64,000 nucleotides of DNA from a virus (IMGVR_UViG_3300029702_000002); one strand, 5' to 3'; shown: positions 26,257-63,747, counted from the first letter of the stretch. Numbers and translations: made by a program. Notes: generated by a model from the sequence alone, not told the origin.

Positions 26257-26311
26257 CCTGCTTCCGTATATATTTAATAAGTTACTTATTATTTATATAT
26301 ACAGAAGCAGG
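26257..26311. repeat. 55-bp palindromic element, copy 1 of 2
   Basis: cctgcttccgtatatatttaataagttacttattatttatatatacagaagcagg; identical to 57553-57607; outer 17-bp arms are near-perfect inverted repeats around an AT-rich core containing AATAAGTtACTTATT. Confidence 0.85.
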
Positions 26312-26422: not shown

Positions 26423-27190
26423 ATGGACGATTTATCGGTATACGCGAGATCATTGGATAAGGCTAAATACTATGTTTACTGTCTCTATGATACAGAAGAC
26501 AAGATGAAAAGACCGTTTTACATAGGAAAAGGCAAATCGACTCGTTGTCTCGATCACATCAAGTATCCCGATGACTCTCCCAAATCCATGCGGATCAAAG
26601 AACTTTTGGCTAATAAAAAATTAGGCATAGATATACTTCGTCATGGTATGGATGAAACCACAGCCAAACTTGTTGAGGCGACATGCATCGACCTTATGGG
26701 GGTCGGAGAGCTTACGAATAAGGTACGAGGAAGTGGTTCCATGATGGGCAGAATATCACTGGACGCCTACCATCACTTAGTGCTGCAAGAGGAAACTGAA
26801 ATTGCTCCTGAGCACGCCGGTCTTGCCTTCCTGCTAAACAGCACCTACAAGTCAGGAATGTCCGCTCTGGCATTATATGAAGCTACGCGTGGCGTATGGG
26901 CAAAGGTTCCAAGAGACGAGAATCTCAAATATGCCTACGCTACATATGGTGGGCTGATAATGGAAGTTTATCAGATTGAATGCTGGGTCAAAGCCGGTTC
27001 TCAGCAGTACTTTACAAGGGATATAGCTCTTGGCCCCGACACAAAACGTTATGAATTTGTTGGCAGAATAGCCGATGAGCATATTAGAAAACTGTATGTA
27101 GGCAAATTAATCAAGAAGCCACCAAGCTACGGTAGCCCTTTTGTGAAGGTTGGGGTGGTTAGGACTGAACATAGTGTTAGCGCGGCATAA
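26423..27190 (+). CDS. GIY-YIG nuclease-domain protein
   Basis: 255 aa; N-terminal KYYVYCLYDTEDKMKRPFYIGKGKSTRCLDH matches the GIY-(10 aa)-YIG ... R ... H catalytic pattern; plus-strand, own terminator. Confidence 0.65.
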   Translation: MDDLSVYARSLDKAKYYVYCLYDTEDKMKRPFYIGKGKSTRCLDHIKYPDDSPKSMRIKELLANKKLGIDILRHGMDETTAKLVEATCIDLMGVGELTNKVRGSGSMMGRISLDAYHHLVLQEETEIAPEHAGLAFLLNSTYKSGMSALALYEATRGVWAKVPRDENLKYAYATYGGLIMEVYQIECWVKAGSQQYFTRDIALGPDTKRYEFVGRIADEHIRKLYVGKLIKKPPSYGSPFVKVGVVRTEHSVSAA

Positions 27191-27206: not shown

Positions 27207-27244
27207 ATGCATTGGCGCAATGTACGCGCCAATGCATGATTTTT
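27207..27244 (+). terminator. rho-independent terminator
   Basis: atgcattggcgc-aatgtac-gcgccaatgcat 12-bp stem followed by gattttt. Confidence 0.65.
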
Positions 27245-27602
27245 AACCTTTCTTCATCAACTCTCGTTTGATTTCATCGGTACGCATCGTGACATCGGCA
27301 GCGGTGATCGCCTCATTCAATTTCACGATGTCCTCGATTTCCTGCGGTGACTTCTCTGCCAGATGGAAAATGGCTGCTCGAATCACGTCAGAACGAGTGA
27401 ACTTCTCGAAGCGAGGGATGAACTTCATCATCTCCAGCAGTTCGAAGTATTCGTCCTCCAGTGACATTGTGCGGCTTTTAATTTTCTCTTTGCCACGAGT
27501 CGGGCGTCCCTGTGGTCTGACTGGTTGGCGCAAAGGAGTTGTGTTCTTAGCCGGTGCATCAGGCTCTTTGCGCTTTGCTAGGTCACCCATTTTCATGGAC
27601 AT
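27243..27602 (-). CDS. small partition partner protein (ParG-like centromere-binding candidate)
   Basis: 119 aa, basic N-terminus; located immediately downstream of and coupled to parA, as in type Ib partition operons; assignment is contextual. Confidence 0.45.
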   Translation of the reverse strand: MSMKMGDLAKRKEPDAPAKNTTPLRQPVRPQGRPTRGKEKIKSRTMSLEDEYFELLEMMKFIPRFEKFTRSDVIRAAIFHLAEKSPQEIEDIVKLNEAITAADVTMRTDEIKRELMKKG

Positions 27603-28270
27603 TATTCTTCTTCCTCCAGACTCAACAGATAATCTACAAATTCTTCAAACTCGGCTTCCGCCTTTTTGTCGCGCTCGCTACCGGTCATTTCAAAGATAGA
27701 ACGACCAGACTCTTCCGCATCATCATAGACGTTGCGGTTATATAGATTGACTGGCGCAGACTCGATTCCAAACGTCTCAACAATCTCTTTAGCCGCCAGA
27801 ATGCGAGACACTTGTGATGGCAAAGCCGGGCACTGGTTCATGACCGCGCGGACCTTCACTTTATCGTTTACATTGCGAACATTGTCGATAATAGGATCGA
27901 TGTCACGTAAAGATTTCAAATCACGACGCTTAGGACGCAGCGGGATAATGATAACGTCAGCCATCAGCATCGCTTGTCGCTGAATTTCGGAGTCGAAGCC
28001 ACCAGCATCTACCACTACAAACTCAGCTCTACCCTGAAGCGATTTTAGGTGCTTAATGATGTCATCCTGAACGTATGCAAAAGGAATCAGCTCCAGGTCT
28101 TCGTTCTGTCGACGGTCTTCACACCAGCTCGTTGTCGTGCGCTGAATATCTATATCGGTAATATAAACCTTCTTCTTCTTTTTGACTTTCAGGCAAACGG
28201 CAATTTGCTGGGCAACGGTGGATTTGCCAGGCCCGCCCTTTGTGCCGCCAACCACAAAGATCTTGGTCAT
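27602..28270 (-). CDS. parA: ParA/ParF-type partition ATPase
   Basis: 222 aa; deviant Walker A GGTKGGPGKST; size typical of type Ib ParA. Confidence 0.75.
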   Translation of the reverse strand: MTKIFVVGGTKGGPGKSTVAQQIAVCLKVKKKKKVYITDIDIQRTTTSWCEDRRQNEDLELIPFAYVQDDIIKHLKSLQGRAEFVVVDAGGFDSEIQRQAMLMADVIIIPLRPKRRDLKSLRDIDPIIDNVRNVNDKVKVRAVMNQCPALPSQVSRILAAKEIVETFGIESAPVNLYNRNVYDDAEESGRSIFEMTGSERDKKAEAEFEEFVDYLLSLEEEE

Positions 28271-31039: not shown

Positions 31040-34000
31040 TCAGTTACTTGTTGCCCCAACAGTACCTGCAAATTTCAGCCATTGACCTGACGGACTTCTA
31101 TTACTACGGTAGTGATAAACGAGGATTGCGTTTGTAACTCCACCGTAGTCAGCTTTATGTGACGTTGTTAAACGAATTGTATAATCACCGTTAGGTAGAT
31201 TAAAAACTTCGATTATAGATTCTGCTAATTCTACAGCACCAAATCCCGTTATATTGTTGATACTGCCAGCATTGAATCCCATAGCATCGCCAAAGCCAAT
31301 CCAATAACTTTTGCTAAACGCCCCATTTGATTTTAGGTGGCTAATGAATGCGGACAAGCTCATGCCCATATCCCCACCTGAAACAGAGGAAGTTCGCACA
31401 GTCATGCTTGGAAGAGCACTGCTCTTCACATAGGAACTTAGAAGGTTTGTTACCTCTGTTTTCGTGTAAGCATTAAGGTTAGCCGCAGTCAAAGTTATAT
31501 CGGCAGAGCCATCAAACGCCACACCAGCAATTTTCCTTGCTGTCTGCAATTTTGTGGCGGTTGCGGCATTACCAGTAGTGTTCTGATTACCAGTTGTATT
31601 CACACCAGGGATTGAATCCTTAGCGGTATATACCTGCGCCCACGCTGACCATGCCGCACCTGTGTTATCTCTTCGTGAGCGAATGAAAACTGGCGCATGT
31701 GCACCGCTCGTACCACTCCAGCCAATAAGCAACTCTCCCTCACCAGCAGCACTCGCACCTTTCATGTGCAATACGTTGCCATACATGGTCGGGTAGCTAT
31801 TGTTGTACGCCTCATACATTTGAATGCCAGCAGTGCCTTGAGTAGAGCCGCTTAACGCCGTAACTCGGCCACGAGATACCAATGTATTAATATTGATATC
31901 GCCTGAACCATCAAACTTAACACCATTGATGTTTCTCGCTGTTTGCAACTTCGTAGCTGTTGAAGCATTACCGTTCAAACTACCATTTACGCCACCAGTC
32001 ACATTTAGTCCATTACCAATTGATACAGCACCGCTGGTATTATTAATTGTAATAGGTCGCAAACCGTTCCATGAACCTAATGTGTCTCCTGATGCTGTTA
32101 GCATGAAATATGTGTTCGATCCATCATTACGGATAAAGAACCCAAAGCTACCGTAAGCAATGCGGAAACCATTTGCATATTTTGAAATGATCTCGCCAGA
32201 AGATGTCAAACCTCCAGATAATGTACCACCGGTAAGAGGTAATGCACCGACATCAGAGGCTGTTGGTTTGTTTTTCGTGTTATATACTCTTCGCCATCCT
32301 GGAGAATAATCTGTGCCATTAAATACATAGATAAACTCCGCATTAGTGAGAGCACCGGAAACACTTGTCGTTGTGGCCGTTGTTATGCGGATCGTATAAT
32401 TATTTGAACTACTACCGTTATTAAATACTTCTATAACAGCTCCTGCCAATGGAATAACGCCACAACCAGTTTCACTATTTGGTATGGTTGCGCTATTGGC
32501 ATAGGCCCACGCACATCGAGCAATCCATGCCTTTGTGTTAAAGGCTCCATTATTTTGCAATAACGTCACTAACTGGGCTGTTGTTATTGCTCCGCCATTA
32601 CTTCCTGTAGTTAACCAACCAGTAGGAGATGCTGGGCAACCTATATTTGCTGGTGACAAGGAAATATTTGCCGAACCGTCAAACGACACCCCATTAATAG
32701 TACGCGCAGTCTGCAACTTCGTAGCAGTAGCCGCATTACCTGTTGTATTCTGATTACCAGTCGTATTAACACCTGGCAAATTAATATTTGCAGTACCATC
32801 AAAGCTCACGCCGCCGATAGTTCTTGCCGTCTGTAGTTTTGTAGCAGTTGCGGCATTACCAGTGGTGTTCTGATTACCCGTAGTGTTTACACCTGGAAGA
32901 TTAATATTGGCAGAACCGTCGAAACCAACTCCACCGATAGATCTTGCCGTCTGTAATTTCGTTGCTGTAGCAGCATTTCCTGAAAGACTTGAAATAAATG
33001 GATGTGAACAGTAATAACCTCGTCCATTTTTAAAGTCCAAAATTATCTGTGCATTCGTACTTTCTGATAAAGGATCAGTTGCCCCCCACTTATAAGTGGT
33101 TTGACCAACTGCATAATCAGCCGTTGGAACAATCACATTTAATCCTTCCTCAGCAAAAATCTGGATAGGGAATGCTCTTGTCTCAACGTAAAATACACTA
33201 CACAAATCATCATCTTTCACGCTTGCGATAATCGAGTGTATAGATCGTTCAACGGTTGAATATATTGAGAAAAAACCAACAGCATATGAACCGCGATCAG
33301 ACCAACCGCCCGGCATAACAAAACCATTAAACTCACAATTATTCATAGCGTATCCGCCAGCTGAGGAATAAGTGGTGATAACCACTCGTGAGGCTAATTC
33401 ATCTGTGCCACCACCAGTTCGGCGAAAGACTACAGGATACCACTTACCGCTTACTGCATTTGCAGGAGCAGAGAAAGTGTATTTTCGCATCCCCTTTTTC
33501 TTATCCACTTCACCTTTGCTGTAAACATTAATGTTATTCAGGAAGCGGCCCTTGTCGGGGATATCAGCACCATTCTGATCCTTCTGTAGTCTTTTTTCAG
33601 CATTATCATATGCGGCCTTAACTGCTTTTGGCGTTGCGGCCAGCGATTCACTGGTGCTATCGACAGCACTGCTAAGTTTCACAACACCTTTAGTTGTAAG
33701 GCTTGCGTCTTCCATCGCAACTGCACCGGCAATCTCTTCAGCACGATCAGCAGCAGCTTCCGCACGGGTCGCAGCGGATTCAGCAGCAGTTTTGCTCTGA
33801 GATGCTGCCGTCGCACTGCCTGCCGCCTCTGTTGCTTTCGTGGATGCTGTCGTGGCGCTGCCCTTCGCTGCGGACGCTTGTCTGGTCGCCTCATCTTTTG
33901 AAGCAGACGCCGATGATGCCGATGACGCTGCCGAACTGGCGGACGATGCGGCTGCCGTTTTTGAGGATTCTGCACGGGTTTCCGACGCTTTCGCGTTCGT

Positions 34001-35077
34001 TTCGGATGTCTTCGCTGCGGAAGCAGACCTCGCTGCTGCGCTGGCCTGTTCAGTGGCTTCGCCAGCCTTCGTTGTGGCTGTTGAAGCAGACGATGCGGCA
34101 CTTTCTGCCGATTTTCCGGCGGCGGTGGCACTGGCTGAGGCCTGCCCGGCACTTGTTGACGCGGCACTGGCAGACGACGCAGCCGCTGTTTTTGAGCCTG
34201 CCGCAGCCGAAGCGCTCTGTCCCGCTGCCGTTTCAGAAGACCTGGCGTTCGTCTCGGACGTTTTTGCCGCCTTCGCGGAATTTCCTGCCGCCGTTGCCGA
34301 GGAAGCGGCATTACTGGCGCTCGAGGCTGCGCTCGTTTCTGATGATTTCGCTGCCTCTTTTGAGGCCGCCGCATCCCGGGCTGAGGTGGCAGCTTCTGAC
34401 GCTTTCGTGGTCGCGGTGGATGCAGAAGTGGCTGCTGATTGTTGTGACGCTGCGGCATTCGTTTCAGATTTTTTCGCAGCAGTTGCACTCGCACTTGCGG
34501 CACTTTGTGAGGATGCCGCAGCGGATGCACTTTGAGACGCTTGAGAGGCTTTTTCTCCAGCGGTATTGGCGCTTTCTGCTGCTGCGGCAGCACTGGCCGC
34601 CGCCTCACGAGCTTTGTCGCCAGCAGCATCAATCGCGTCAGTGTTATTTTTATACCACTCAACGTTTTCGTTGTGCTCGTTGACGATCTGCATTAGCGGC
34701 TTAACGGTTACTTCTGTACCGTCTTCACGCTCGATTGTCACCTCATCCAGAGCAGTCAACCAACTGCGCATAGACTTGGAATCAGCCGACATACGCGACA
34801 TTAGTGCTGTAAAGCGCGCGCTAAACTGTGTTAAGTCGCCTTCATAGGTCGTAATGATTCGGCACGGAACCTCAGACTGAGTTTCGCCGGTATAAGGTTC
34901 TGAGAGAACAATATTCGTATCGCTTATTACGCGCTTGATCTCATACAGCTTATTGTCGGGGCCAATGACGATCATCCCCGGCAACACACCATTAGCTGTT
35001 ACGTTCCAGGCTGTCCCTGCCCCAACCAGAGTATTGCTACCCTGTGTAAATGTGATAGTACCTTCCCTGTACCACAT
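31040..35077 (-). CDS. tail fiber protein (side tail fiber type) with Ala/Ser-rich fibre repeats
   Basis: 1345 aa; about 300 aa of SETxAxxSxxAA-type low-complexity repeats; four to five copies of NTTGNAATATKLQTAR.I.GV.FDGSA.I.LPGV. Confidence 0.75.
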   Translation of the reverse strand: MWYREGTITFTQGSNTLVGAGTAWNVTANGVLPGMIVIGPDNKLYEIKRVISDTNIVLSEPYTGETQSEVPCRIITTYEGDLTQFSARFTALMSRMSADSKSMRSWLTALDEVTIEREDGTEVTVKPLMQIVNEHNENVEWYKNNTDAIDAAGDKAREAAASAAAAAESANTAGEKASQASQSASAAASSQSAASASATAAKKSETNAAASQQSAATSASTATTKASEAATSARDAAASKEAAKSSETSAASSASNAASSATAAGNSAKAAKTSETNARSSETAAGQSASAAAGSKTAAASSASAASTSAGQASASATAAGKSAESAASSASTATTKAGEATEQASAAARSASAAKTSETNAKASETRAESSKTAAASSASSAASSASSASASKDEATRQASAAKGSATTASTKATEAAGSATAASQSKTAAESAATRAEAAADRAEEIAGAVAMEDASLTTKGVVKLSSAVDSTSESLAATPKAVKAAYDNAEKRLQKDQNGADIPDKGRFLNNINVYSKGEVDKKKGMRKYTFSAPANAVSGKWYPVVFRRTGGGTDELASRVVITTYSSAGGYAMNNCEFNGFVMPGGWSDRGSYAVGFFSIYSTVERSIHSIIASVKDDDLCSVFYVETRAFPIQIFAEEGLNVIVPTADYAVGQTTYKWGATDPLSESTNAQIILDFKNGRGYYCSHPFISSLSGNAATATKLQTARSIGGVGFDGSANINLPGVNTTGNQNTTGNAATATKLQTARTIGGVSFDGTANINLPGVNTTGNQNTTGNAATATKLQTARTINGVSFDGSANISLSPANIGCPASPTGWLTTGSNGGAITTAQLVTLLQNNGAFNTKAWIARCAWAYANSATIPNSETGCGVIPLAGAVIEVFNNGSSSNNYTIRITTATTTSVSGALTNAEFIYVFNGTDYSPGWRRVYNTKNKPTASDVGALPLTGGTLSGGLTSSGEIISKYANGFRIAYGSFGFFIRNDGSNTYFMLTASGDTLGSWNGLRPITINNTSGAVSIGNGLNVTGGVNGSLNGNASTATKLQTARNINGVKFDGSGDININTLVSRGRVTALSGSTQGTAGIQMYEAYNNSYPTMYGNVLHMKGASAAGEGELLIGWSGTSGAHAPVFIRSRRDNTGAAWSAWAQVYTAKDSIPGVNTTGNQNTTGNAATATKLQTARKIAGVAFDGSADITLTAANLNAYTKTEVTNLLSSYVKSSALPSMTVRTSSVSGGDMGMSLSAFISHLKSNGAFSKSYWIGFGDAMGFNAGSINNITGFGAVELAESIIEVFNLPNGDYTIRLTTSHKADYGGVTNAILVYHYRSNRSPSGQWLKFAGTVGATSN
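33680..34640. repeat. low-complexity GC-rich coding repeat region (Ala/Ser-rich fibre repeats)
   Basis: Repetitive gc(n)gc codon periodicity; produces long spurious ORFs on both strands in the ORF track. Confidence 0.7.
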
Positions 35078-55533: not shown

Positions 55534-55551
55534 GATAATTACTTACCTATC
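55534..55551. promoter_or_regulatory. intergenic motif GATAATTACTTACCTATC upstream of the portal gene
   Basis: Motif-family member 14-30 nt upstream of the minus-strand start at 55520. Confidence 0.4.
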
Positions 55552-56803
55552 GAGAACCACCAAGAATAACACGGTTTTTGACTGGATACCTACGATGTAC
55601 TGGATAGCCCAATGCGTCTGCACTATGCTCAATGCCACCTGTCTTATCCATATCTCGTGTTCCAGGCTTGTAGATGACTTTTTCCAGTGAATCAATCAAA
55701 TGCTTGCACTTCGGATCGATATACAACCGGATATCTCCAGATGCGGTCATCAGCATTCGGTTAACAGCATTAACACGATCCGCAATTGGCGGGTGCTTTT
55801 TCGAATAATCGACACGTAAGAATCCCTTCTCTTTGAATATGTCGACGTCAGACTCCCCGCGAGCATGTTGGCGATAAGCACCTGCCGGATCTGGAAATAC
55901 CGTTATCTGTGATTTCCAGCGCCAGAAGCGTCTCTCAAGCTCATCACAAACCTCTGCCGTGTTAGAGGAAAAGAGCACCAATTCATCAATTGCCCATAGC
56001 TCACCATTTGGCTGAGGTTGCAAAATTACTGAAGACATCGGGTCAATGTTGAAGTCCTGCCCTACCCATATAGGCAACCGAGGGTTGAACTGAAGCGGTT
56101 TTACATGCACGTTACGATCGAACGGGTAGTAAACGCGCCCGGACATGTTCTCAAAGCTCGCCAGGTACTCCTGAGCGAACGATTTCGGGTCCATATCGTT
56201 CTTAGCAGCTTCAATTTCCGCCGTAGGCACAAACGGAGAATCGGCAGTTACAAACTGCCAGCTCTTCCACTGTCCCTTTCTTTGCAGCTCTACGTTCTGG
56301 CCTATAGTCCACAGTTTGTGAAATTCCGAGAAACCTTTTGGCGTACCAATGATCAGTGCACCGCCGCGTGTCGATGAAAGAGTAGGTCGTAACACCTTGT
56401 ACCAGGTGTCAGCCTTCATATCCTGAAATTCATCAAGCACTACAAAATGCAACGCTACGCCGCGCAGAGTGTCAGGCTTATCAGCACCTTTGAGGGCGAT
56501 CTCCGAACCGTTCTTCAACACGATTGTCATCGTGGTGTCGTTCTTTTTCCTAACCCACTTACGAGGCAGAACTTCCTGTAGATCGTCCCACAAAATCTGG
56601 CGAGCCATCTGGTAAGTAGGAGCGACATACCAGACCCTTTGCTTTTTTTCCTTTGCCGCCGCACGAATAATAGTGGAGATCGACAACCGGGATTTTCCCC
56701 AGCGTCGACCAGCACAAACAACTTTAAATCGATGCGGAGACTGGAAGACTTTCATCTGTCCAGAATGCAGTTGCACAAGACTGAGCGAGGACGGGATTGC
56801 CAT
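55547..56803 (-). CDS. terminase large subunit
   Basis: 418 aa; N-terminal Walker A-like VVCAGRRWGKSRLS; Walker B-like HFVVLDEFQD; start overlaps the small-subunit stop. Confidence 0.7.
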   Translation of the reverse strand: MAIPSSLSLVQLHSGQMKVFQSPHRFKVVCAGRRWGKSRLSISTIIRAAAKEKKQRVWYVAPTYQMARQILWDDLQEVLPRKWVRKKNDTTMTIVLKNGSEIALKGADKPDTLRGVALHFVVLDEFQDMKADTWYKVLRPTLSSTRGGALIIGTPKGFSEFHKLWTIGQNVELQRKGQWKSWQFVTADSPFVPTAEIEAAKNDMDPKSFAQEYLASFENMSGRVYYPFDRNVHVKPLQFNPRLPIWVGQDFNIDPMSSVILQPQPNGELWAIDELVLFSSNTAEVCDELERRFWRWKSQITVFPDPAGAYRQHARGESDVDIFKEKGFLRVDYSKKHPPIADRVNAVNRMLMTASGDIRLYIDPKCKHLIDSLEKVIYKPGTRDMDKTGGIEHSADALGYPVHRRYPVKNRVILGGSR

Positions 56804-57435
56804 TATTCGTCCTCCCCTTCACTTCCATCATCTGTCGCATCAAATTCGCTTAGAGCTTCTTCTTCCAACGTCTCAAGCAATTCGTCATCGATGATTTCAG
56901 GCTCGTCGTCTTCCTGACGTAATTTCGCCACCTGGGAAGGCGTAAGCTCACCAAATACCAGGTTCGGAATTTCTTCCTCGTCATTTTCCGCATGATCCAT
57001 GCCCAATGCTTTGGACGAAACTTCAAAGCATTTTGCAAGGGTATTACTGGCTCTCTGTAAGCTCTTGAGAGAATCCTCAATCGCCCCTAAAGGCTTACCC
57101 TCACGTTTGGCCGTAGTGACTTCGACCATCACCATCTGCCCCAACGCATACGCCCAGCCGTCATAACGTGTACGACGTTCTTCTATCTTTTCCGCACGGG
57201 CTTTAGCGCGAAGCTCTGCGTCAGATTTAAGAGACTCACGAACCATCTTCCCAACAGAGTCCGCGCCTTTCTCTAATCCTCGCTTTTTGAAATGTCTGGA
57301 GAGTGTTTCACGACGAATGCCGTACTCTTCCTCCAGCTTTGAGAGTGTATATTCGCCTGACGTCCATTTGGCTTCAGCTTCGGCCCACTCCGCTGGTGTC
57401 AGGCGAGTTTTTACCTCGTCTTTTTCGACCGTCAT
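56803..57435 (-). CDS. terminase small subunit (DNA-binding)
   Basis: 210 aa; N-terminal HTH-like region (LSKLEEEYGIRRETLSRHFKKRG); acidic C-terminus; coupled to the large subunit. Confidence 0.5.
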   Translation of the reverse strand: MTVEKDEVKTRLTPAEWAEAEAKWTSGEYTLSKLEEEYGIRRETLSRHFKKRGLEKGADSVGKMVRESLKSDAELRAKARAEKIEERRTRYDGWAYALGQMVMVEVTTAKREGKPLGAIEDSLKSLQRASNTLAKCFEVSSKALGMDHAENDEEEIPNLVFGELTPSQVAKLRQEDDEPEIIDDELLETLEEEALSEFDATDDGSEGEDE

Positions 57436-57552
57436 AGATCCCTCTAAAACACACAGAGCGCGTCCATGCGCTCTAAAACAACTTGTTTACTGCATTTTCT
57501 AACCAACTTGTTTTCTGGGTTGTTTAATTAGGTCTGGGCATGTCTTATTAAG

Positions 57553-57607
57553 CCTGCTTCCGTATATATTTAATAAGTTACTTATTATTTATATATACAG
57601 AAGCAGG
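57553..57607. repeat. 55-bp palindromic element, copy 2 of 2
   Basis: Identical to 26257-26311; lies 118 bp upstream of the terminase small-subunit start. Confidence 0.85.
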
Positions 57608-57631
57608 TCTTTAAATAAGCTCCCAGACCGA

Positions 57632-57898
57632 TTACATCACCAGTAACTTCGCTTTGGCTCGACCTAAAGTGGTTAACCCAAGAGTTCGGCGGTGATAGCG
57701 ATTGTCACTGCGTTGGCGCGTATGCCCTTTCTCCACAAGCCCCTTTTTTATCAGAGCGCGAATTGAGAACTGGATACTTTGCTTGGTTGTCTTGTACGGC
57801 AAAACTTCAAGCAATTCGTCCAGATCAAGTAGATGACCTCGCTCATAACCGAGATTGAGCGTTTTGATGATGTCCTTTTGTTTATCGGTTAACGTCAT
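57632..57898 (-). CDS. hypothetical protein (88 aa)
   Basis: ORF track; basic C-terminus. Confidence 0.4.
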   Translation of the reverse strand: MTLTDKQKDIIKTLNLGYERGHLLDLDELLEVLPYKTTKQSIQFSIRALIKKGLVEKGHTRQRSDNRYHRRTLGLTTLGRAKAKLLVM

Positions 57899-57907
57899 GG
57901 CAAATCC

Positions 57908-58798
57908 TTATGCCGGTAAAGCAATTTCTAACGGTTTATCCAAAGGTTGTTTGTCGAATGCCAGCAGTGGCAGCGTGTCAGGCAGTCGACGACCAAAGTC
58001 AGGGTTTCGATACACCCCATACAACGGAGACGTAAAGCTCAGGTTGTGAATGTCCTTGAGCAACTTCACAATGCTGGCCTCGTCCACCAGACTGTCGGCA
58101 ATGTCCTGAATCGTCGTGCCACGATTCCGCCCAGCTTTTGCCAGGGAACTGTTCTTATGGTAGTCCGCCACCAGATCACGCAGTGCACGGCGACGACGAG
58201 ACTCGCTCATTGCGAACAACTCTTTGACGATCGCCTCGTTATCACCCGGGTCGGAACGAAAATGGCGCTGGAATACACGCAGTGCACTTTCATAGCTCTT
58301 CGGTCGCTCAGGGCGGATGAACTTAAACCCTGCTTTCATGGCGAAGGGATTGTATTTGCTCATCGAGGACTGGATCTCAATGATTGGCCGGTCATGCATC
58401 CTGCTAACCAGGTTAATCATTCGATAAGAGACGCCTACGCCACGATACTGAGTATCCACAACTGAGCGACTGATCACCGCAAAGTTGTTATTCACGTACC
58501 GACCCCAGTACTGGTTAGCCACGGTGGTATTAGTGGTTGGTTTCAACTTAGGAAACATGCGGTGGCGAGGTGCCAACAGTAGTTTCGGGTAAGCCATAAC
58601 CACGACGCCCACCAGACGGTCATCAAGTTCGCAGCGATAGTAAGTTGGCGCGAAAGGTTTGCCGTCTGTTTTGTAGTGAAGCGACTTAAGAGCGTGCCAG
58701 TCCTCTACAGTTCCCTTTGTAACAGTCATTCGCTCCAGAAAGTCCAGATGACGCGGAAACTCTTCAGGGCGGTAGCGTTTAATGATGATGTCCGTCAT
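57908..58798 (-). CDS. GNAT-like acetyltransferase-fold protein with C-terminal extension
   Basis: 296 aa; GNAT motif A/B-like AVISRSVVDTQYRGVGVSYRMINLV and PFAMKAGFKFI; last gene of a four-gene coupled operon. Confidence 0.4.
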   Translation of the reverse strand: MTDIIIKRYRPEEFPRHLDFLERMTVTKGTVEDWHALKSLHYKTDGKPFAPTYYRCELDDRLVGVVVMAYPKLLLAPRHRMFPKLKPTTNTTVANQYWGRYVNNNFAVISRSVVDTQYRGVGVSYRMINLVSRMHDRPIIEIQSSMSKYNPFAMKAGFKFIRPERPKSYESALRVFQRHFRSDPGDNEAIVKELFAMSESRRRRALRDLVADYHKNSSLAKAGRNRGTTIQDIADSLVDEASIVKLLKDIHNLSFTSPLYGVYRNPDFGRRLPDTLPLLAFDKQPLDKPLEIALPA

Positions 58799-59460
58799 GA
58801 ATGGACCTCATCATGACTACCATTGTGATATTCCACCTTCACGCGTTCTTTGTAGTGCTTGGTGATCTGCATATCCGGGCGCAGCGCGTTCTTCAGGTCT
58901 TCGTGAGTCGTCGCCACCATTACCGTCGCACCAACCTTTCGCGCGGCACGCTGGAGGTTAGACGCCACAACCTGAGCGGTTACACGGTCGAGAACAGCGC
59001 CGAACTCGTCAGCAGCCCACACTTTAGCGCCTGACTCAATCAGTTTGGCAATCTTGAGACGATATTTCTGGCCGTCTGACATTTCAGAAGGCTTGCGAAC
59101 AAACAGATATGCATCGTTCAGACCAGCCATAGATAACAACCCAAGCGCATCACTGGTCGTTTTGCCCAACTGATCGATGACGTTAACCTCATTATCGAAG
59201 GTAAAATCATCGATGGAGGCTACAGACAGCCCTTCATCCTTCATCTGTCGTTGCAACTCGCGCAGCACAACGGATTTGCCGGAACCGGATTGGCCGGTGA
59301 TGTACACCACATCGCCCTGCTTCACTTCCAGCTCCAGATTGTCGTAAAGCGTCCACTCTTTTTCGTCCAGGCCAAGCCCGAACGACTCAGCGATTTCCAA
59401 CGTGCGCGTGGTTTTATTTACGCGTGTCTGAAACGATATGTTGATGATGTATTTGCTCAT
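58795..59460 (-). CDS. ABC-type ATPase (stand-alone)
   Basis: 221 aa; Walker A GQSGSGKS; ABC-signature-like MSDGQKYRL; Walker B WAADEFGAVLD; H-loop-like ATTHED. Confidence 0.65.
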   Translation of the reverse strand: MSKYIINISFQTRVNKTTRTLEIAESFGLGLDEKEWTLYDNLELEVKQGDVVYITGQSGSGKSVVLRELQRQMKDEGLSVASIDDFTFDNEVNVIDQLGKTTSDALGLLSMAGLNDAYLFVRKPSEMSDGQKYRLKIAKLIESGAKVWAADEFGAVLDRVTAQVVASNLQRAARKVGATVMVATTHEDLKNALRPDMQITKHYKERVKVEYHNGSHDEVHS

Positions 59461-60158
59461 GCAGCCATCTCCCCGGAAGAGATCTTCTCCGCATATGCCA
59501 CAAATGCGTCTACCCCGCTTTCTCCCGTCATTTCTTCCATATGGGCAAGCAAATCACCAACAACAATGGCAGAGCCAGCAGGGAGCGTTTTAAAGCCCAA
59601 TACGTCGACAACACGTACTTCTTCCGCTGCAACTTCACGACTGATCTCGGTGTGTTCATCCTTCTGTCGTTTAGTTTCTTCGCCAAGATCGATAACTAGC
59701 GAGTCGGTGTCCATTTCTTCTGTCATACTGCCAACGAGAACATTCAACTCACGCTCTTCAAAGCCGAAAACCTCGATATCGTCCAGAACAAGCGACTCAA
59801 GCTCTTTCTGTAGCTTAATTGCATCGTAATCAATGCTGGCAAGTCGGTTATCTTCAAGGCGCTTCGCACGAACCTCGTCATCACTGAGATCATCGCGAAC
59901 AATAACCGGTACGCGCTCAAGTCCAGCAAAAATTGCAGCCTCACGGCGGCCGTGGCCAGTAATAATTACGTCGTTCTTATCGACCGTAATTGGCTGGTCA
60001 AATCCGCGCTTTTTAATGGCTGCGGCCAGATCTCGGATCTGCTGTTCATCATGCTTTTTGGCATTCATCTCATAGGGAATAAGATCTGCCGGGTCGCGAT
60101 ATACGATTTCAAACTTTTTGGTCATTACATACGCTCCTTGTAGTAGTCGACCAGCCAC
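59457..60158 (-). CDS. ParB-like nuclease-domain protein
   Basis: 233 aa; ParB/Srx-fold motif ITGHGRREAAIFAGLERVPVIV (compare ParB GERRxRA). Confidence 0.65.
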   Translation of the reverse strand: MAGRLLQGAYVMTKKFEIVYRDPADLIPYEMNAKKHDEQQIRDLAAAIKKRGFDQPITVDKNDVIITGHGRREAAIFAGLERVPVIVRDDLSDDEVRAKRLEDNRLASIDYDAIKLQKELESLVLDDIEVFGFEERELNVLVGSMTEEMDTDSLVIDLGEETKRQKDEHTEISREVAAEEVRVVDVLGFKTLPAGSAIVVGDLLAHMEEMTGESGVDAFVAYAEKISSGEMAA

Positions 60159-60823
60159 ACCAGAGCCTCACCAGCGTTCTCCATTTCATTACCGGTGTTA
60201 ATAGCCTGCTCTTTGATGATGTTTTTTATGGTTTCTGCAACACGATCTGACGCATCGAAAGTTACTTTGAAGCGCATGGTCTGATGTTCCGCACCCACAC
60301 GTTCGGTTTTCTCTCGTTTGTCGGTATCGACAGGCTCATCACTACCACGAGACAACGCCTCCAGTGCTTCAAGGTCGATTGCCGCCTCTTTTGCTAAAAC
60401 CATCGAGATTTCGTCGTCATACGGGGCGATTTCAGACAGTTGATAGTCAAGTTCTGACTGAATTTCTTCAATGAAGCGTTGCAATGCGATTTGGTCGTCT
60501 TCACCGTATCGCTCGTTGTCCACCAGTGACATCTGTTTAGCTACGACATCGCTAATTTTGCCCACAGAAAGCACCGGAACCGTTGAAATTCCTTGCTCAA
60601 TAGCAGCACGCCAGCGATGTTCGCCGCCGAGGATTTCAAAAAATCCATCTTCAAGTTCACGAGCCAAAATTGGCTTAAAAAAGCCCAATTTTTCGATAGA
60701 ACCTTTCAGTTTTTCAAAATTCTGCGCACCAACCGAATTGGTGTTCCAGGTATTCGGGCGAAGGTTGGCAACATCAACCTGCAAAATCGTGATTTTTACA
60801 TCCATTTTATTGCTACAATCCAC
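60125..60823 (-). CDS. ParB-like nuclease-domain protein (second paralogue)
   Basis: 232 aa; ILGGEHRWRAAIEQGISTVPV; first gene of the four-gene operon. Confidence 0.65.
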   Translation of the reverse strand: MDCSNKMDVKITILQVDVANLRPNTWNTNSVGAQNFEKLKGSIEKLGFFKPILARELEDGFFEILGGEHRWRAAIEQGISTVPVLSVGKISDVVAKQMSLVDNERYGEDDQIALQRFIEEIQSELDYQLSEIAPYDDEISMVLAKEAAIDLEALEALSRGSDEPVDTDKREKTERVGAEHQTMRFKVTFDASDRVAETIKNIIKEQAINTGNEMENAGEALVWLVDYYKERM

Positions 60824-60842
60824 TAAGTAATCACTTACTTAT
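60824..60842. promoter_or_regulatory. intergenic motif TAAGTAATCACTTACTTAT in a divergent promoter region
   Basis: Motif-family member immediately upstream of the ParB-like gene start, between divergent operons. Confidence 0.4.
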
Positions 60843-60887
60843 TATAATAGCCAAATAACATACAAAAGGCACTAAGGAAAGAGGTTT

Positions 60888-62447
60888 ATGACTGTTCGGA
60901 TTGTATCTAACGCAGTTAATGCGCTTATTTCTGGCGCAGATGACAAGGTAAAGCAAATGGTGCAACAGATGTTGAGCTACGAAGTCGAGACTGGCGACTG
61001 GAAGGGCACAAGCACGATGTTCAACTGGAGTAAAAACTCGTTCCCTGCTGGCTTTGCCAAGCCTGTAGCGGCGAACTTGAACAAGGCGGGCATCAAATGT
61101 GTTCATATCCGCAAAGACAAAGCCCCGGCGCTTGGTAAACCAAATCCGGCGGTTAACCCATTCCCATACAATCCTGATTATGCGTATCAGGATCAGACTG
61201 TGGAAACACTGGTTCGAGAGGGAATGATGATTGCGCAGATCGCTACTGGTGGCGGGAAATCTAACGTTGCCTGCAAAGCAGCTGCACGTATCGGTCGAAT
61301 GACATTATTTTTAACAACCCGCTCTGTTCTGATGTTTCAAATGGCCGAAAACTTCCAGAGATCCATCGACTACCGCGCCGAAAATGGCGAACCGTGGTTA
61401 AAGGGCCAAAAGGTTGGAGTCATTGGCTCGGGTGAGTTCCAGGTATCACGACATATCAACGTCGCTACAGTTCAAACTCTGGCAAGTTTCCTTGAAGAAC
61501 CACCACGCGATGCAACACCAGATAAAAAGAGCTACCACCTCAAACGTCGGGAGTTGGTGAAACGCTTCCTTTCAAGTGTGTCTCTGCTTATTCTGGAAGA
61601 AGCGCATGAGTCTTCAGGCTCTAATTTCTATGACATTGCCAGATTATGTGTGAACGCAGACTATCGTCTGGCGCTTACAGCCACGCCGTTCATGAAGGAT
61701 TCGACGGAAGCCAACATGCGCCTGATGGCGGTGGCCGGGCGAATTGAAATTAAAGTCACAGAAAAGTACCTGATTGATCGAGGCATTCTGGCAAAGCCGT
61801 ACTTCCTTTATCATAAAGTTGCCTACAAGCCAGACGAGGCCAGAATCAAGGCCGAACTTGCCAACAAACACCTCAATTTTAGAGTTGGTATGAGCACCGC
61901 CTACCAAAAGGCTTATCAGTTGGGGATCGTGTATAATTTGGGACGTAACGAGGCCATAGTGCGCGAGGCATTGCTTTATAAGCAACATTCACTCAACTGC
62001 ATGACTCTGGTTCGTCTTAAACGCCACGGGCAAATCCTGATGGAGATGATGAAGGAGTCAGGTCTTAAAGTTGATTTCATCTATGGGGAATCTAACCAGA
62101 CGACAAGGCAAGCAAAGCTGAACAGTTTAGCGTCTGGAGAAATAGATGTTTTAATAGGCTCGACTATTCTGGATGTCGGTGTTGATGTGCCAAGCGTTGG
62201 TGCGGTCATTCTTGCTGGTGGTGGGAAAGCAGAAGTTGAAATGAGGCAGCGTGTCGGTCGTGGCTTACGAGCCAAAAAAAATCAGGCAAACGTGTGTTTT
62301 ATCACTGATTTCATTGACATTAGCAACAAATACCTGTTGTCTCACTCTTATGAGCGAAAACACATCATCGACACCACACCTGGCTTTGCAGAAGGTGTAT
62401 TGCCTATTGATGGAGCATTCGATTTTGGAGTTCTGAAACGAGATTAG
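60888..62447 (+). CDS. superfamily-2 helicase (DEAH-box-like)
   Basis: 519 aa; Walker A ATGGGKSN; DEAH-like LILEEAHE; C-terminal helicase motif VGRGLR. Confidence 0.7.
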   Translation: MTVRIVSNAVNALISGADDKVKQMVQQMLSYEVETGDWKGTSTMFNWSKNSFPAGFAKPVAANLNKAGIKCVHIRKDKAPALGKPNPAVNPFPYNPDYAYQDQTVETLVREGMMIAQIATGGGKSNVACKAAARIGRMTLFLTTRSVLMFQMAENFQRSIDYRAENGEPWLKGQKVGVIGSGEFQVSRHINVATVQTLASFLEEPPRDATPDKKSYHLKRRELVKRFLSSVSLLILEEAHESSGSNFYDIARLCVNADYRLALTATPFMKDSTEANMRLMAVAGRIEIKVTEKYLIDRGILAKPYFLYHKVAYKPDEARIKAELANKHLNFRVGMSTAYQKAYQLGIVYNLGRNEAIVREALLYKQHSLNCMTLVRLKRHGQILMEMMKESGLKVDFIYGESNQTTRQAKLNSLASGEIDVLIGSTILDVGVDVPSVGAVILAGGGKAEVEMRQRVGRGLRAKKNQANVCFITDFIDISNKYLLSHSYERKHIIDTTPGFAEGVLPIDGAFDFGVLKRD

Positions 62448-62753: not shown

Positions 62754-63218
62754 ATGAAGTCTCCCATACTGTTCACTTTCTGTTCTAAAACTATCATGAA
62801 ATACTCGCTTCTCCCTCTACTAACGTTACCAGTGTTGATGCTTACCGCGTGCCAATCACGCCCAATATCAATCCATGACGCCAAACCAGCACCGCAGGCC
62901 AAAGTGTTCAAGTATCAAAGCGCAGCGCCAGCTACGTTGGTGGTAATGAGAGACACAGGTTTTGTAGGAGCTGGATGTGATGCTTCCATTTTCATCAACG
63001 GCGAAACTGTCGCAAAACTGGCTACAGGCGAAAAAGCGACTTTCCATTTAAATGCCGGAGAATTAATTGTGGGTGCATCTCTTGAAGGTGCAGGTTTATG
63101 TGCTCTAAACCCCGCTCGTCAAGAGCGAGAAACGACTCTGAAGAATGGAGACACAAAAGCGTTCAGGGTGTTCACCAGCAATTCTGGTGACATCGACATT
63201 CTGCCAACAACTCTGTGA
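62754..63218 (+). CDS. lipoprotein (154 aa)
   Basis: Signal peptide with lipobox LTAC (LLTLPVLMLTACQSRP). Confidence 0.55.
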   Translation: MKSPILFTFCSKTIMKYSLLPLLTLPVLMLTACQSRPISIHDAKPAPQAKVFKYQSAAPATLVVMRDTGFVGAGCDASIFINGETVAKLATGEKATFHLNAGELIVGASLEGAGLCALNPARQERETTLKNGDTKAFRVFTSNSGDIDILPTTL

Positions 63219-63222
63219 TGAC

Positions 63223-63747
63223 ATGACAACCAAAGATATTACCTACGGTATCCAAGCTGAACTCTGGCCGCGAGATTACACTAACGTTGAAAAACTACTG
63301 ATGTTCTGGCGCAGAGAACAAATTCCTGTAAGGGTCACTCTCGAAGATGGCCAGGCGTTTTGCATGTACGTTTATGGCCTCATGCCATCTCGTAACAAAG
63401 TTGACCTTTGCCCAGCCCCTTTTGACAAAGAAAATCGTATAAGGCTCCCACTTGAACGCATTAGTACAATTGAATCAGGTGTGGTTGACAGTATCGCTCA
63501 CGATTTCAAAGGTCGACTAACAGTTCACCCTGATTATGTCGATAATCGGCCATCACGCCGCGATTTTTTTGCAATTTGCAACCAAGCCTACAAAGCAAAC
63601 AAATCTATAAGGGTGTACATGGCGGATGGCCGTGAAATTGAGGGGGTGTCAGCAGGCGCAGATGCTTGTCAGGTTACACTACGTGTCGAGAACGTTAGAA
63701 AAATAGTTGTTTTGTTCGATTGGGTTGAACGAATTTTGCCTTTTTGA
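63223..63747 (+). CDS. hypothetical protein (174 aa)
   Basis: Track ORF 63145..63747 overlaps the upstream lipoprotein gene; in-frame ATG at 63223 (MTTKDITYG...) lies just after its stop. Confidence 0.45.
   Translation: MTTKDITYGIQAELWPRDYTNVEKLLMFWRREQIPVRVTLEDGQAFCMYVYGLMPSRNKVDLCPAPFDKENRIRLPLERISTIESGVVDSIAHDFKGRLTVHPDYVDNRPSRRDFFAICNQAYKANKSIRVYMADGREIEGVSAGADACQVTLRVENVRKIVVLFDWVERILPF

Follow-up and report, generated by a model that had tools for sequence, protein, structure and literature searches.

A candidate DNA acyl-modification module with two ParB-like proteins, an ABC-type ATPase and a predicted GNAT acyltransferase upstream of phage terminase genes

ABC-type ATPases joined to GNAT domains are predicted to acylate a DNA base, with Tenacibaculum phage pT24 providing an example, in the part of the work of Iyer, Zhang, Burroughs and Aravind that a later paper summarizes (NAR 2013, cited in PMC7824862). 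Phage ParB-like proteins without a DNA-binding domain have been shown by experiment to be required activators of thymine dioxygenases on double-stranded DNA (dsDNA), and terminases are among the commonest neighbors of these ParB/dioxygenase clusters, with 19% co-occurrence (O'Toole et al. 2026, PMC13229309). ParB folds fused to methyltransferases or acetyltransferases bind CTP, ATP or GTP (Kaljevic et al. 2025, PMC12704722). Here we analyze a stretch of viral DNA of 64,000 nucleotides (nt) (IMGVR_UViG_3300029702_000002; hereafter the window), where overlapping genes for two ParB-like proteins, an ABC-type ATPase and a GNAT-like protein lie upstream of the terminase genes. The reading that we favor, with about even confidence, is that this unit acylates progeny DNA before it is packaged, driven by ATP and assisted by the ParB-like proteins.

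The four genes lie on the minus strand. ParB1 (60125-60805, 226 amino acids (aa)) has a ParB/Srx N-terminal NTP-binding domain and ParB2 (59457-60125, 222 aa) is a second, divergent ParB N-domain protein; they are followed by a soluble ABC-type ATPase (58795-59460, 221 aa) and a predicted GNAT-fold acyltransferase (57908-58798, 296 aa). The successive junctions read TAATG, ATGA and ATGA, with overlaps of 1, 4 and 4 nt, and each junction start has its own purine-rich ribosome-binding site ahead of it (AAGGAG, GGGGAG and GAGG), so the translational coupling of the four genes is real. The initial annotation of the window had recognized the four overlapping minus-strand open reading frames (ORFs), but placed two of the start codons wrongly: RefSeq/PGAP, the record of Escherichia phage Cyrano and the PHROG profile registers put the start of ParB1 at ATG 60805 rather than the alternative GTG 60823, and that of ParB2 at ATG 60125 rather than GTG 60158. 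A further minus-strand gene (57632-57898) encodes an 88-aa winged-helix-like (wHTH) protein and begins 9 nt past the GNAT gene. Since two distant relatives (loci L083 and L086) show a 4-nt overlap between its counterpart and the GNAT gene, it is probably a member of the same operon, and the unit would thus comprise five genes and extend beyond the four delimited at first. A gap of 196 nt separates the wHTH gene from a TerS-like gene (56803-57435, phrog_867) and TerL (55547-56803), labeled as terminase small and large subunits in the Cyrano annotation, and from the portal and remaining structural genes, all on the same strand. The position beside the packaging genes noted at the outset is therefore accurate, and linkage to terminase recurs in many phages. 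A scan of the 56.5-63 kb region for sigma-70 promoters and terminators gave counts no better than those of shuffled sequences, and no promoter is claimed.

The ATPase has the Walker A (GQSGSGKS), signature (SDGQ), Walker B (AADE) and H-loop (TTH) motifs of ABC ATPases, and matches Pfam ABC_tran (E 5.8e-13) and phrog_293. The GNAT protein falls in phrog_886 and has a sub-threshold match to Pfam GNAT (E 0.037); the acyl-CoA-binding and motif-B residues of the fold are invariant in 42 homologues. A helical region occupies approximately residues 165-255, and what was initially described as a 130-aa extension resolves into five helices and two terminal strands with an invariant YGxYxNP motif. This extension is homologous in the fused relatives as well. 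A PDB sequence search with the GNAT profile returned nothing relevant. No transmembrane permease was found as a partner of the ATPase, and the five products are not membrane proteins by annotation or domain; with no membrane partner, and with the ATPase fused to a soluble GNAT in relatives, we rejected an ABC-transporter reading.

An exhaustive profile search returned 928 hits, the distant ones being fusions of an N-terminal ABC domain to a C-terminal GNAT domain. The predicted structure of one fused homologue is a single compact two-domain protein (pLDDT 89.5, pTM 0.84). Because the distant homologues are fusions and are modeled as one compact protein, we take the ABC and GNAT proteins of the window to be one functional unit, apparently a widespread ABC-GNAT fusion in split form. 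In the records of Cyrano and Klebsiella phage, the product of the fourth gene is already labeled 'ABC-type ATPase fused to a predicted acetyl/acyltransferase domain'. The ABC half is 30% identical to that of phage pT24 (E 2e-18), which places the pair of the window in the pT24 family on sequence similarity. The same half matches the fusion proteins at E 1e-41 to 1e-61, and the fused homologue P0279 in turn matches the pT24 protein at E 6e-15. The GNAT that follows the ABC protein shares the motifs DW..L..HY and R.V....(Y/W)(R/Q)GxG with the fusion proteins. One archaeal homologue ends in a TFIIB-repeat DNA-binding domain, which parallels the presence of a wHTH gene in the window. Among the fusions, P0285 (847 aa) contains an intein with a LAGLIDADG endonuclease within its ABC domain, and another ABC-GNAT fusion is directly preceded by a family-B DNA polymerase that also bears an intein (L183, 4336-7980).

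Both ParB-like proteins match Pfam ParB_N (ParB1 E 3e-13, ParB2 E 1.5e-8), and they belong to phrog_723 (E 2e-79) and phrog_930 (E 1e-112), respectively. Aligned with Spo0J, ParB1 places GGEHRWRAA on the GERRxRAA motif and DNER on the ENxxR motif; the alignment of ParB2 with the NTP-binding N-domain of Spo0J/ParB places TGHGRREAA and DNR on the motifs. The two are paralogous, with 33% identity over the first 116 aa and unrelated C-terminal halves. ParB_N is their only Pfam domain: neither the ParB helix-turn-helix (HTH) nor the C-terminal dimerization domain was found in ParB1 or ParB2 at E<=0.1, and both proteins score 43 bits against TIGR00180, under its cut-off of 58.45. ParB2 matches the ParB domain of ParB-methyltransferase fusions (phrog_498, E 5e-32; PADLOC MTase_II, PDLC03229, E 3e-17). 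This appears to be its closest relationship, and it supports a reading in terms of DNA modification. The wHTH protein matches phrog_900 (E 2e-45) and, weakly, LexA_DNA_bind, Sta1 and Lrs14; in relatives with 42-47% identity its gene is always next after the GNAT gene.

The window is, judging by its matches, an SSU5-like phage-plasmid of E. coli, since its region at 57.6-62.5 kb shares 98.7% identity with Escherichia phage Cyrano, 83% with Salmonella phage SSU5 and ~80% with Klebsiella phage-plasmids, and is matched by 782 plasmid records. These plasmids are mostly non-mobilisable and ~110 kb long, and their hosts are Klebsiella, Escherichia, Enterobacter, Yersinia and Salmonella. Surveys of close relatives recovered near-identical SSU5-like elements only. 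Three distant relatives have a GNAT that is 42-47% identical: a marine contig, an Ectothiorhodospira genome and a 3.3-Mb assembly. All three keep the order of an opposite-strand helicase, ParB1, ParB2, ABC, zero to three inserted genes, GNAT, wHTH, a gap, TerS-like, TerL and portal, in line with the initial expectation that the coupled genes would be conserved as a unit. Searching with the GNAT by tblastn identified siphoviruses of ~105-120 kb infecting Pseudomonas (the nickie group), Rhizobium, Stenotrophomonas and Xanthomonas. Phages with an identity of only 41-47% retain the complete layout. Lytic relatives with the unit occur among the nickie-like Pseudomonas phages and the Rhizobium and Stenotrophomonas phages, and psageB1, a member of the nickie group, is described as lytic. 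Given its presence in lytic relatives, the unit appears to be a fixed block of an old phage lineage with a phage function, and not tied to plasmid life. The junction between the ABC and GNAT genes is an insertion hotspot in relatives (L083 7705-7995, L084 7598-7997, L086 6961-7999 and L215 4451-5002), the inserts including Phage_gp49_66, an RyR domain, DUF2829 (in Rhizobium phages) and a 183-aa ORF (in Klebsiella phage ST13-OXA48phi12.3). The two genes of the E. coli window have no insert between them and overlap.

Outside this lineage the ABC and GNAT modules recur in several phage contexts, repeatedly in the order ParB, ABC-GNAT, terminase and with variable chemistry genes close by. Gordonia phage Axumite has ParB, ABC-GNAT, Formyl_trans_N and terminase genes, and Gordonia phage Jace has ParB, ABC-GNAT, an aspartate decarboxylase and a family-III CoA-transferase, the last two of which look like a putative pathway to a beta-alanyl-CoA donor. 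Gene 3 of Axumite (L217 1805-2452) is labeled 'tRNA-methyltransferase', yet it matches Pfam Formyl_trans_N at E 1e-8. Leptospira phage LE4 carries ParB, ABC-GNAT, three small genes and TerL; Streptococcus prophage 315.4 carries ParB, ABC, a small ORF, an ASCH protein, another ORF and TerL; and Lactococcus phage P335 carries ParB, ABC, GNAT, an ORF, TerS and TerL. In planctomycete proviruses (L099, L102 and L103) ABC and GNAT genes precede TerL, sometimes together with a ParB-like gene. In Burkholderia phage phiE255 (BcepMu-like) and in Porphyromonas phages a formyltransferase gene follows ABC-GNAT, and the two lie past the tail-fiber genes, the position where Mu carries mom; in Nonlabens phage P12024S the fusion lies within the replication module. 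The largest group of fused homologues is of an archaeal type, for which we examined 80 viral loci: TerL is immediately upstream of the fusion in 48 and within the locus in 54. Searches of these 80 loci for formyltransferase, ASCH, PanD, CoA-transferase and wHTH genes gave no matches. A fused gene of Bathyarchaeota (L087) has as neighbors TrmB, a laminin-G protein, a cytidylate-kinase-like gene and a transposase. Many viral contigs end at the end of the fused gene or a few nt from it. We considered a location of the gene at the genome terminus and rejected it, as a consistent stop at the gene boundary looks like the trimming of provirus boundaries.

The invariant cofactor motifs, the fusion to an ATPase, the partners with donor chemistry and the mom-like position together find their best explanation in an acyl-CoA-dependent enzyme with an acyl group that varies between lineages, and the phage contexts point to a multi-step acyl chemistry on a polymer. 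The ParB linkage, the homologue with a TFIIB repeat, the wHTH gene and the ASCH neighbor lead us to infer that this polymer is DNA. A role in reading modified bases has been proposed for ASCH domains, and the E. coli protein YqfB is a hydrolase of N4-acetylcytidine. The unit would then be a late-expressed DNA-modification module with the GNAT as catalytic core, moving an acyl group from acyl-CoA onto a nucleobase amino group of the phage DNA. In SSU5-like phages the donor would probably be acetyl-CoA, the simplest guess as these phages have no donor-synthesis gene. By analogy with other soluble ABC domains that drive partner enzymes, the ABC protein, a small transporter-type ATPase that most relatives carry fused to the GNAT, would dimerize on ATP and perform the mechanical work of engaging or flipping the target base in duplex DNA for the GNAT. 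ParB1 and ParB2 would keep the enzyme on dsDNA as NTP-gated clamps or activators, as in the ParB-dependent thymine dioxygenases, and the wHTH protein may contribute site or loading specificity. With expression at the head of the terminase and structural gene string, modification would reach progeny genomes shortly ahead of packaging. It would spare the prophage-plasmid and shield the injected DNA from host restriction. The initial suggestion of a role on DNA entering or leaving the capsid is compatible with such a pre-packaging modification.

Upstream of ParB1, an SF2 (UvsW/XPB-like) helicase gene (60888-62447, plus strand; Pfam DEAD, ResIII and Helicase_C, phrog_16) is transcribed divergently across an 82-nt spacer (60806-60887). 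Divergence from a shared spacer, as first reported, holds, but the link of helicase and operon is not general: it is a matter of lineage-specific synteny, with the helicase adjoining the module only within the SSU5-like lineage. In relatives it opens an oppositely oriented block with a dCMP deaminase and small early genes. Helicases near ABC-GNAT in Nonlabens phage P12024S and pT24 show generic SF2 similarity or none, and we rejected the helicase as a component; it is treated as a probable boundary of the module. The spacer contains the palindrome TAAGTAATCACTTACTTA (TAAGTAA-TCAC-TTACTTA) at 60824-60841, an instance of the recurring palindromic motif that had been noticed in this intergenic region. 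Across the window TAAGT-N0-10-ACTTA is present 12 times, where 0.54 occurrences would be expected, and nine of the ten distinct sites (9622, 15140, 17534, 20887, 26278, 35122, 48534, 54025, 57574 and 60824) are intergenic; its recurrence is thus genuine, and the motif is operator-like, probably the operator of a phage regulator.

The gap between the module and TerS holds a 55-nt near-perfect palindrome, CCTGCTTCCGTATATATTTAATAAGTTACTTATTATTTATATATACAGAAGCAGG, at 57553-57607, inside an imperfect inverted repeat of ~100 nt (57531-57629) with an ssDNA (single-stranded DNA) fold of -25 kcal/mol (z -8). The linear Cyrano record is cut within this palindrome, at 57569/57570, and distant relatives have long AT-cored inverted repeats in the same gap. 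An identical copy of the palindrome is found at 26257-26311, between a 249-aa ORF and an ORF with a GIY-YIG domain, near the ParA locus of the window. The element could be a cos or pac site, a centromere-like site or a bidirectional terminator. The adjoining GIY-YIG gene (26423-27190, plus strand) encodes a 255-aa protein with a LEM-3-like nuclease domain (E 5.5e-7). The ParA locus spans 27243-28270 and consists of a ParA-type ATPase (MipZ/AAA_31, 27602-28270) and a 119-aa gene directly downstream, which bears out the presence of a ParA gene with a small adjoining partner elsewhere in the window. Near the ParA locus of a near-identical plasmid, NZ_CP117002.1, a DUF1778 gene is paired with a GNAT gene (33574-34372; L226 29554-30352); by annotation this is a toxin-antitoxin pair of the TacA/TacT type, and its GNAT is unrelated to the GNAT of the module. 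On the other side of the helicase, at 63145-63747 (plus strand, probable start 63223), lies a gene for a FljA-like 'repressor of phase-1 flagellin' (PF03614, E 5e-83), through which the phage-plasmid may silence host flagellin.

Several points weigh against acyl modification of DNA as the role of the unit. The acceptor is taken from genomic context, and GNATs also acylate proteins, RNA and small molecules. The similarity of the SSU5-type GNAT to the phage fusion proteins is at the level of motifs only (hhalign probability 59-63%), and against the pT24 GNAT the hhalign probability is 31%, over 16 columns. No ParB was detectable within 8 kb of the archaeal-type fusions in the 80 loci, and ParB is therefore not a universal partner; this pattern, with TerL upstream, would fit a packaging role equally. 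Universal retention in the lineage is more typical of a core function than of an anti-restriction accessory. Our literature searches turned up no experimental study of the ABC-GNAT module, nor any of modified DNA in SSU5- or nickie-like phages.

To our knowledge, the only characterized GNAT coupled to an ATPase is TmcA/NAT10, which acetylates a cytidine of RNA, and this precedent favors a different acceptor: an ATP-dependent GNAT that acylates RNA such as tRNA, or a protein of the virion, the terminase or the host, with the ParBs as NTP-regulated partners. The ParB/Srx fold is also found in enzymes that do not act on DNA (PMC12704722). We nevertheless regard a non-DNA acceptor as rather unlikely, given the recurrent linkage to ParB folds whose closest relatives are fused to DNA methyltransferases, the mom-like position in Mu-like phages, the DNA-binding TFIIB repeat of one homologue and the wHTH gene that follows in the window, and the lack of any Pfam match to TmcA domains. 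The location of the module directly upstream of TerS and TerL, beside the palindrome where the linear Cyrano record is cut, raises another candidate role, that of a terminase accessory in which a ParB-like nuclease or NTPase and the ABC-GNAT pair would help terminase to recognize, cut or process the packaging site, the GNAT fold being structural or regulatory. ABC-GNAT stands beside TerL in three arrangements (SSU5-like, planctomycete proviruses and the 48 of 80 archaeal-type contigs), and the module is kept in every member of the lineage examined. A packaging role sits poorly with a separate TerS-like gene (56803-57435) already occupying the position directly upstream of TerL, with the invariance of the acyl-CoA-binding residues, and with the distance of the gene from terminase in phiE255, Porphyromonas phages and Nonlabens P12024S. 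Formyltransferase, aspartate decarboxylase and CoA-transferase partners make no packaging sense, and DNA-modification clusters often adjoin terminases anyway (PMC13229309). We consider this role quite unlikely; if acyl modification of DNA proves wrong, the strict conservation beside terminase would point to a new packaging cofactor.

Two further explanations have less in their favor. The nuclease and NTPase activities of Osa and ParB-methylase, both ParB/Srx proteins (summarized in PMC5512222), and the weak PADLOC matches of the ABC ATPase to MADS mad3, mad8 and PtuA would suit a defense, exclusion or DNA-degrading device, with the ParBs as NTP-regulated nucleases that attack host or competing DNA together with the ATPase. 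No PADLOC model, however, matches the ParB or GNAT proteins as a system, the cofactor motifs of the GNAT are conserved, and the unit is a fixed core block of its lineage, the variable genes being inserted between ABC and GNAT instead; we hold such a device to be very improbable. A second partition or segregation system of the plasmid-prophage seems scarcely credible. Two ParB_N proteins are present and SSU5-like elements replicate as plasmids, but the unit has no ParA, the only ParA-type gene lying with its own partner at 27243-28270, and both ParBs fall under the TIGR00180 cut-off and are without the ParB HTH and C-terminal domains. The unit also occurs in lytic relatives and in non-plasmid phages of Gram-positive hosts. 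The initial annotation had likewise set partition aside, and the missing ParA, the missing ParB domains and the lytic relatives agree with it.

If the unit does acylate DNA, enterobacterial phage-plasmids, which are very common, would harbor a DNA modification of a new chemical class, ATP-dependent base acylation. More tentatively, SSU5-like virion DNA may contain an undescribed acyl base, possibly N-acetyl, made by what would be the first DNA acyltransferase driven by an ABC ATPase, with two ParB clamps and a winged-helix adaptor; the same machine with swapped donors (formyl, beta-alanyl) may constitute a hypermodification family across phages of Actinobacteria, Firmicutes, Bacteroidetes and spirochaetes and across archaeal viruses. 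Such an activity would give a function to the very frequent uncharacterized phage annotations 'ABC transporter' and 'ParB', extend the role of ParB folds as partners of DNA-modifying enzymes and explain their clustering with terminases. It would also bear on restriction evasion by resistance-carrying phage-plasmids, on nanopore artefacts on virion DNA and on enzymes for DNA labeling. The system is workable in E. coli K-12, as phage PhiR41_1 lists MG1655 as a host, and a 13-year-old prediction thereby becomes testable.

The unit can be set beside several known systems. In TmcA/NAT10 a GNAT is coupled to a P-loop ATPase, and ATP hydrolysis accompanies acetyl transfer to a tRNA or rRNA base. The TmcA ATPase is of the helicase type, whereas that of the window is of the ABC type, and no Pfam match to TmcA domains was found. 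With ParABS the window shares, in ParB1, the ParB N-terminal fold and the GxxRxxA motif; unlike ParABS, the unit has no adjacent ParA, HTH or dimerization domain, scores below family cut-offs and occurs in lytic phages. Mom of phage Mu, a GNAT-fold DNA adenine methylcarbamoylase, appears no closer in sequence to the GNAT of the window than dozens of other GNATs are, and acts without an ABC ATPase or ParB partner. ParB-methyltransferase fusions (phrog_498, PDLC03229) likewise attach a ParB domain, the one matched by ParB2, to a DNA-modifying enzyme, but the window has no methyltransferase domain, its ParB is separate and its enzyme is a predicted acyltransferase. The 5mYOX/ParB clusters resemble the unit in having a ParB with an NTP-binding domain and no obvious DNA-binding domain beside a DNA-modifying enzyme, a predicted one in the unit, and in often lying near terminase (PMC13229309); they differ in pairing one ParB with an Fe/2OG dioxygenase, whereas the unit pairs two ParBs with a predicted GNAT acyltransferase and an ABC ATPase.

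A scan of the components against PADLOC-DB 2.0 gave generic ATPase matches and matches to the ParB domain of methyltransferases, none for the GNAT and none at the level of a system. The initial view that the combination corresponds to no named system thus stands as far as PADLOC is concerned, but the ABC-GNAT pair already belongs to a family predicted to acylate DNA, as that prediction is summarized in the citing paper. The proposal of an unusual DNA-directed complex near packaging is supported in part, though its core pair is a member of this family. The likeness to this COG2401-type ABC-GNAT module, in what is cited of it a computational prediction only, extends to a homologous ABC ATPase with the family motifs, similarity to pT24 and no membrane partner, a GNAT directly after it, shared motifs and a phage setting. 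The window differs in having separate coupled genes and a helical region of ~90 residues in the GNAT, and it adds two ParB paralogues and a wHTH protein at the head of a terminase operon. While DNA acylation by the ABC-GNAT family has been predicted before, the arrangement of split genes, two ParBs and a wHTH protein is distinctive.

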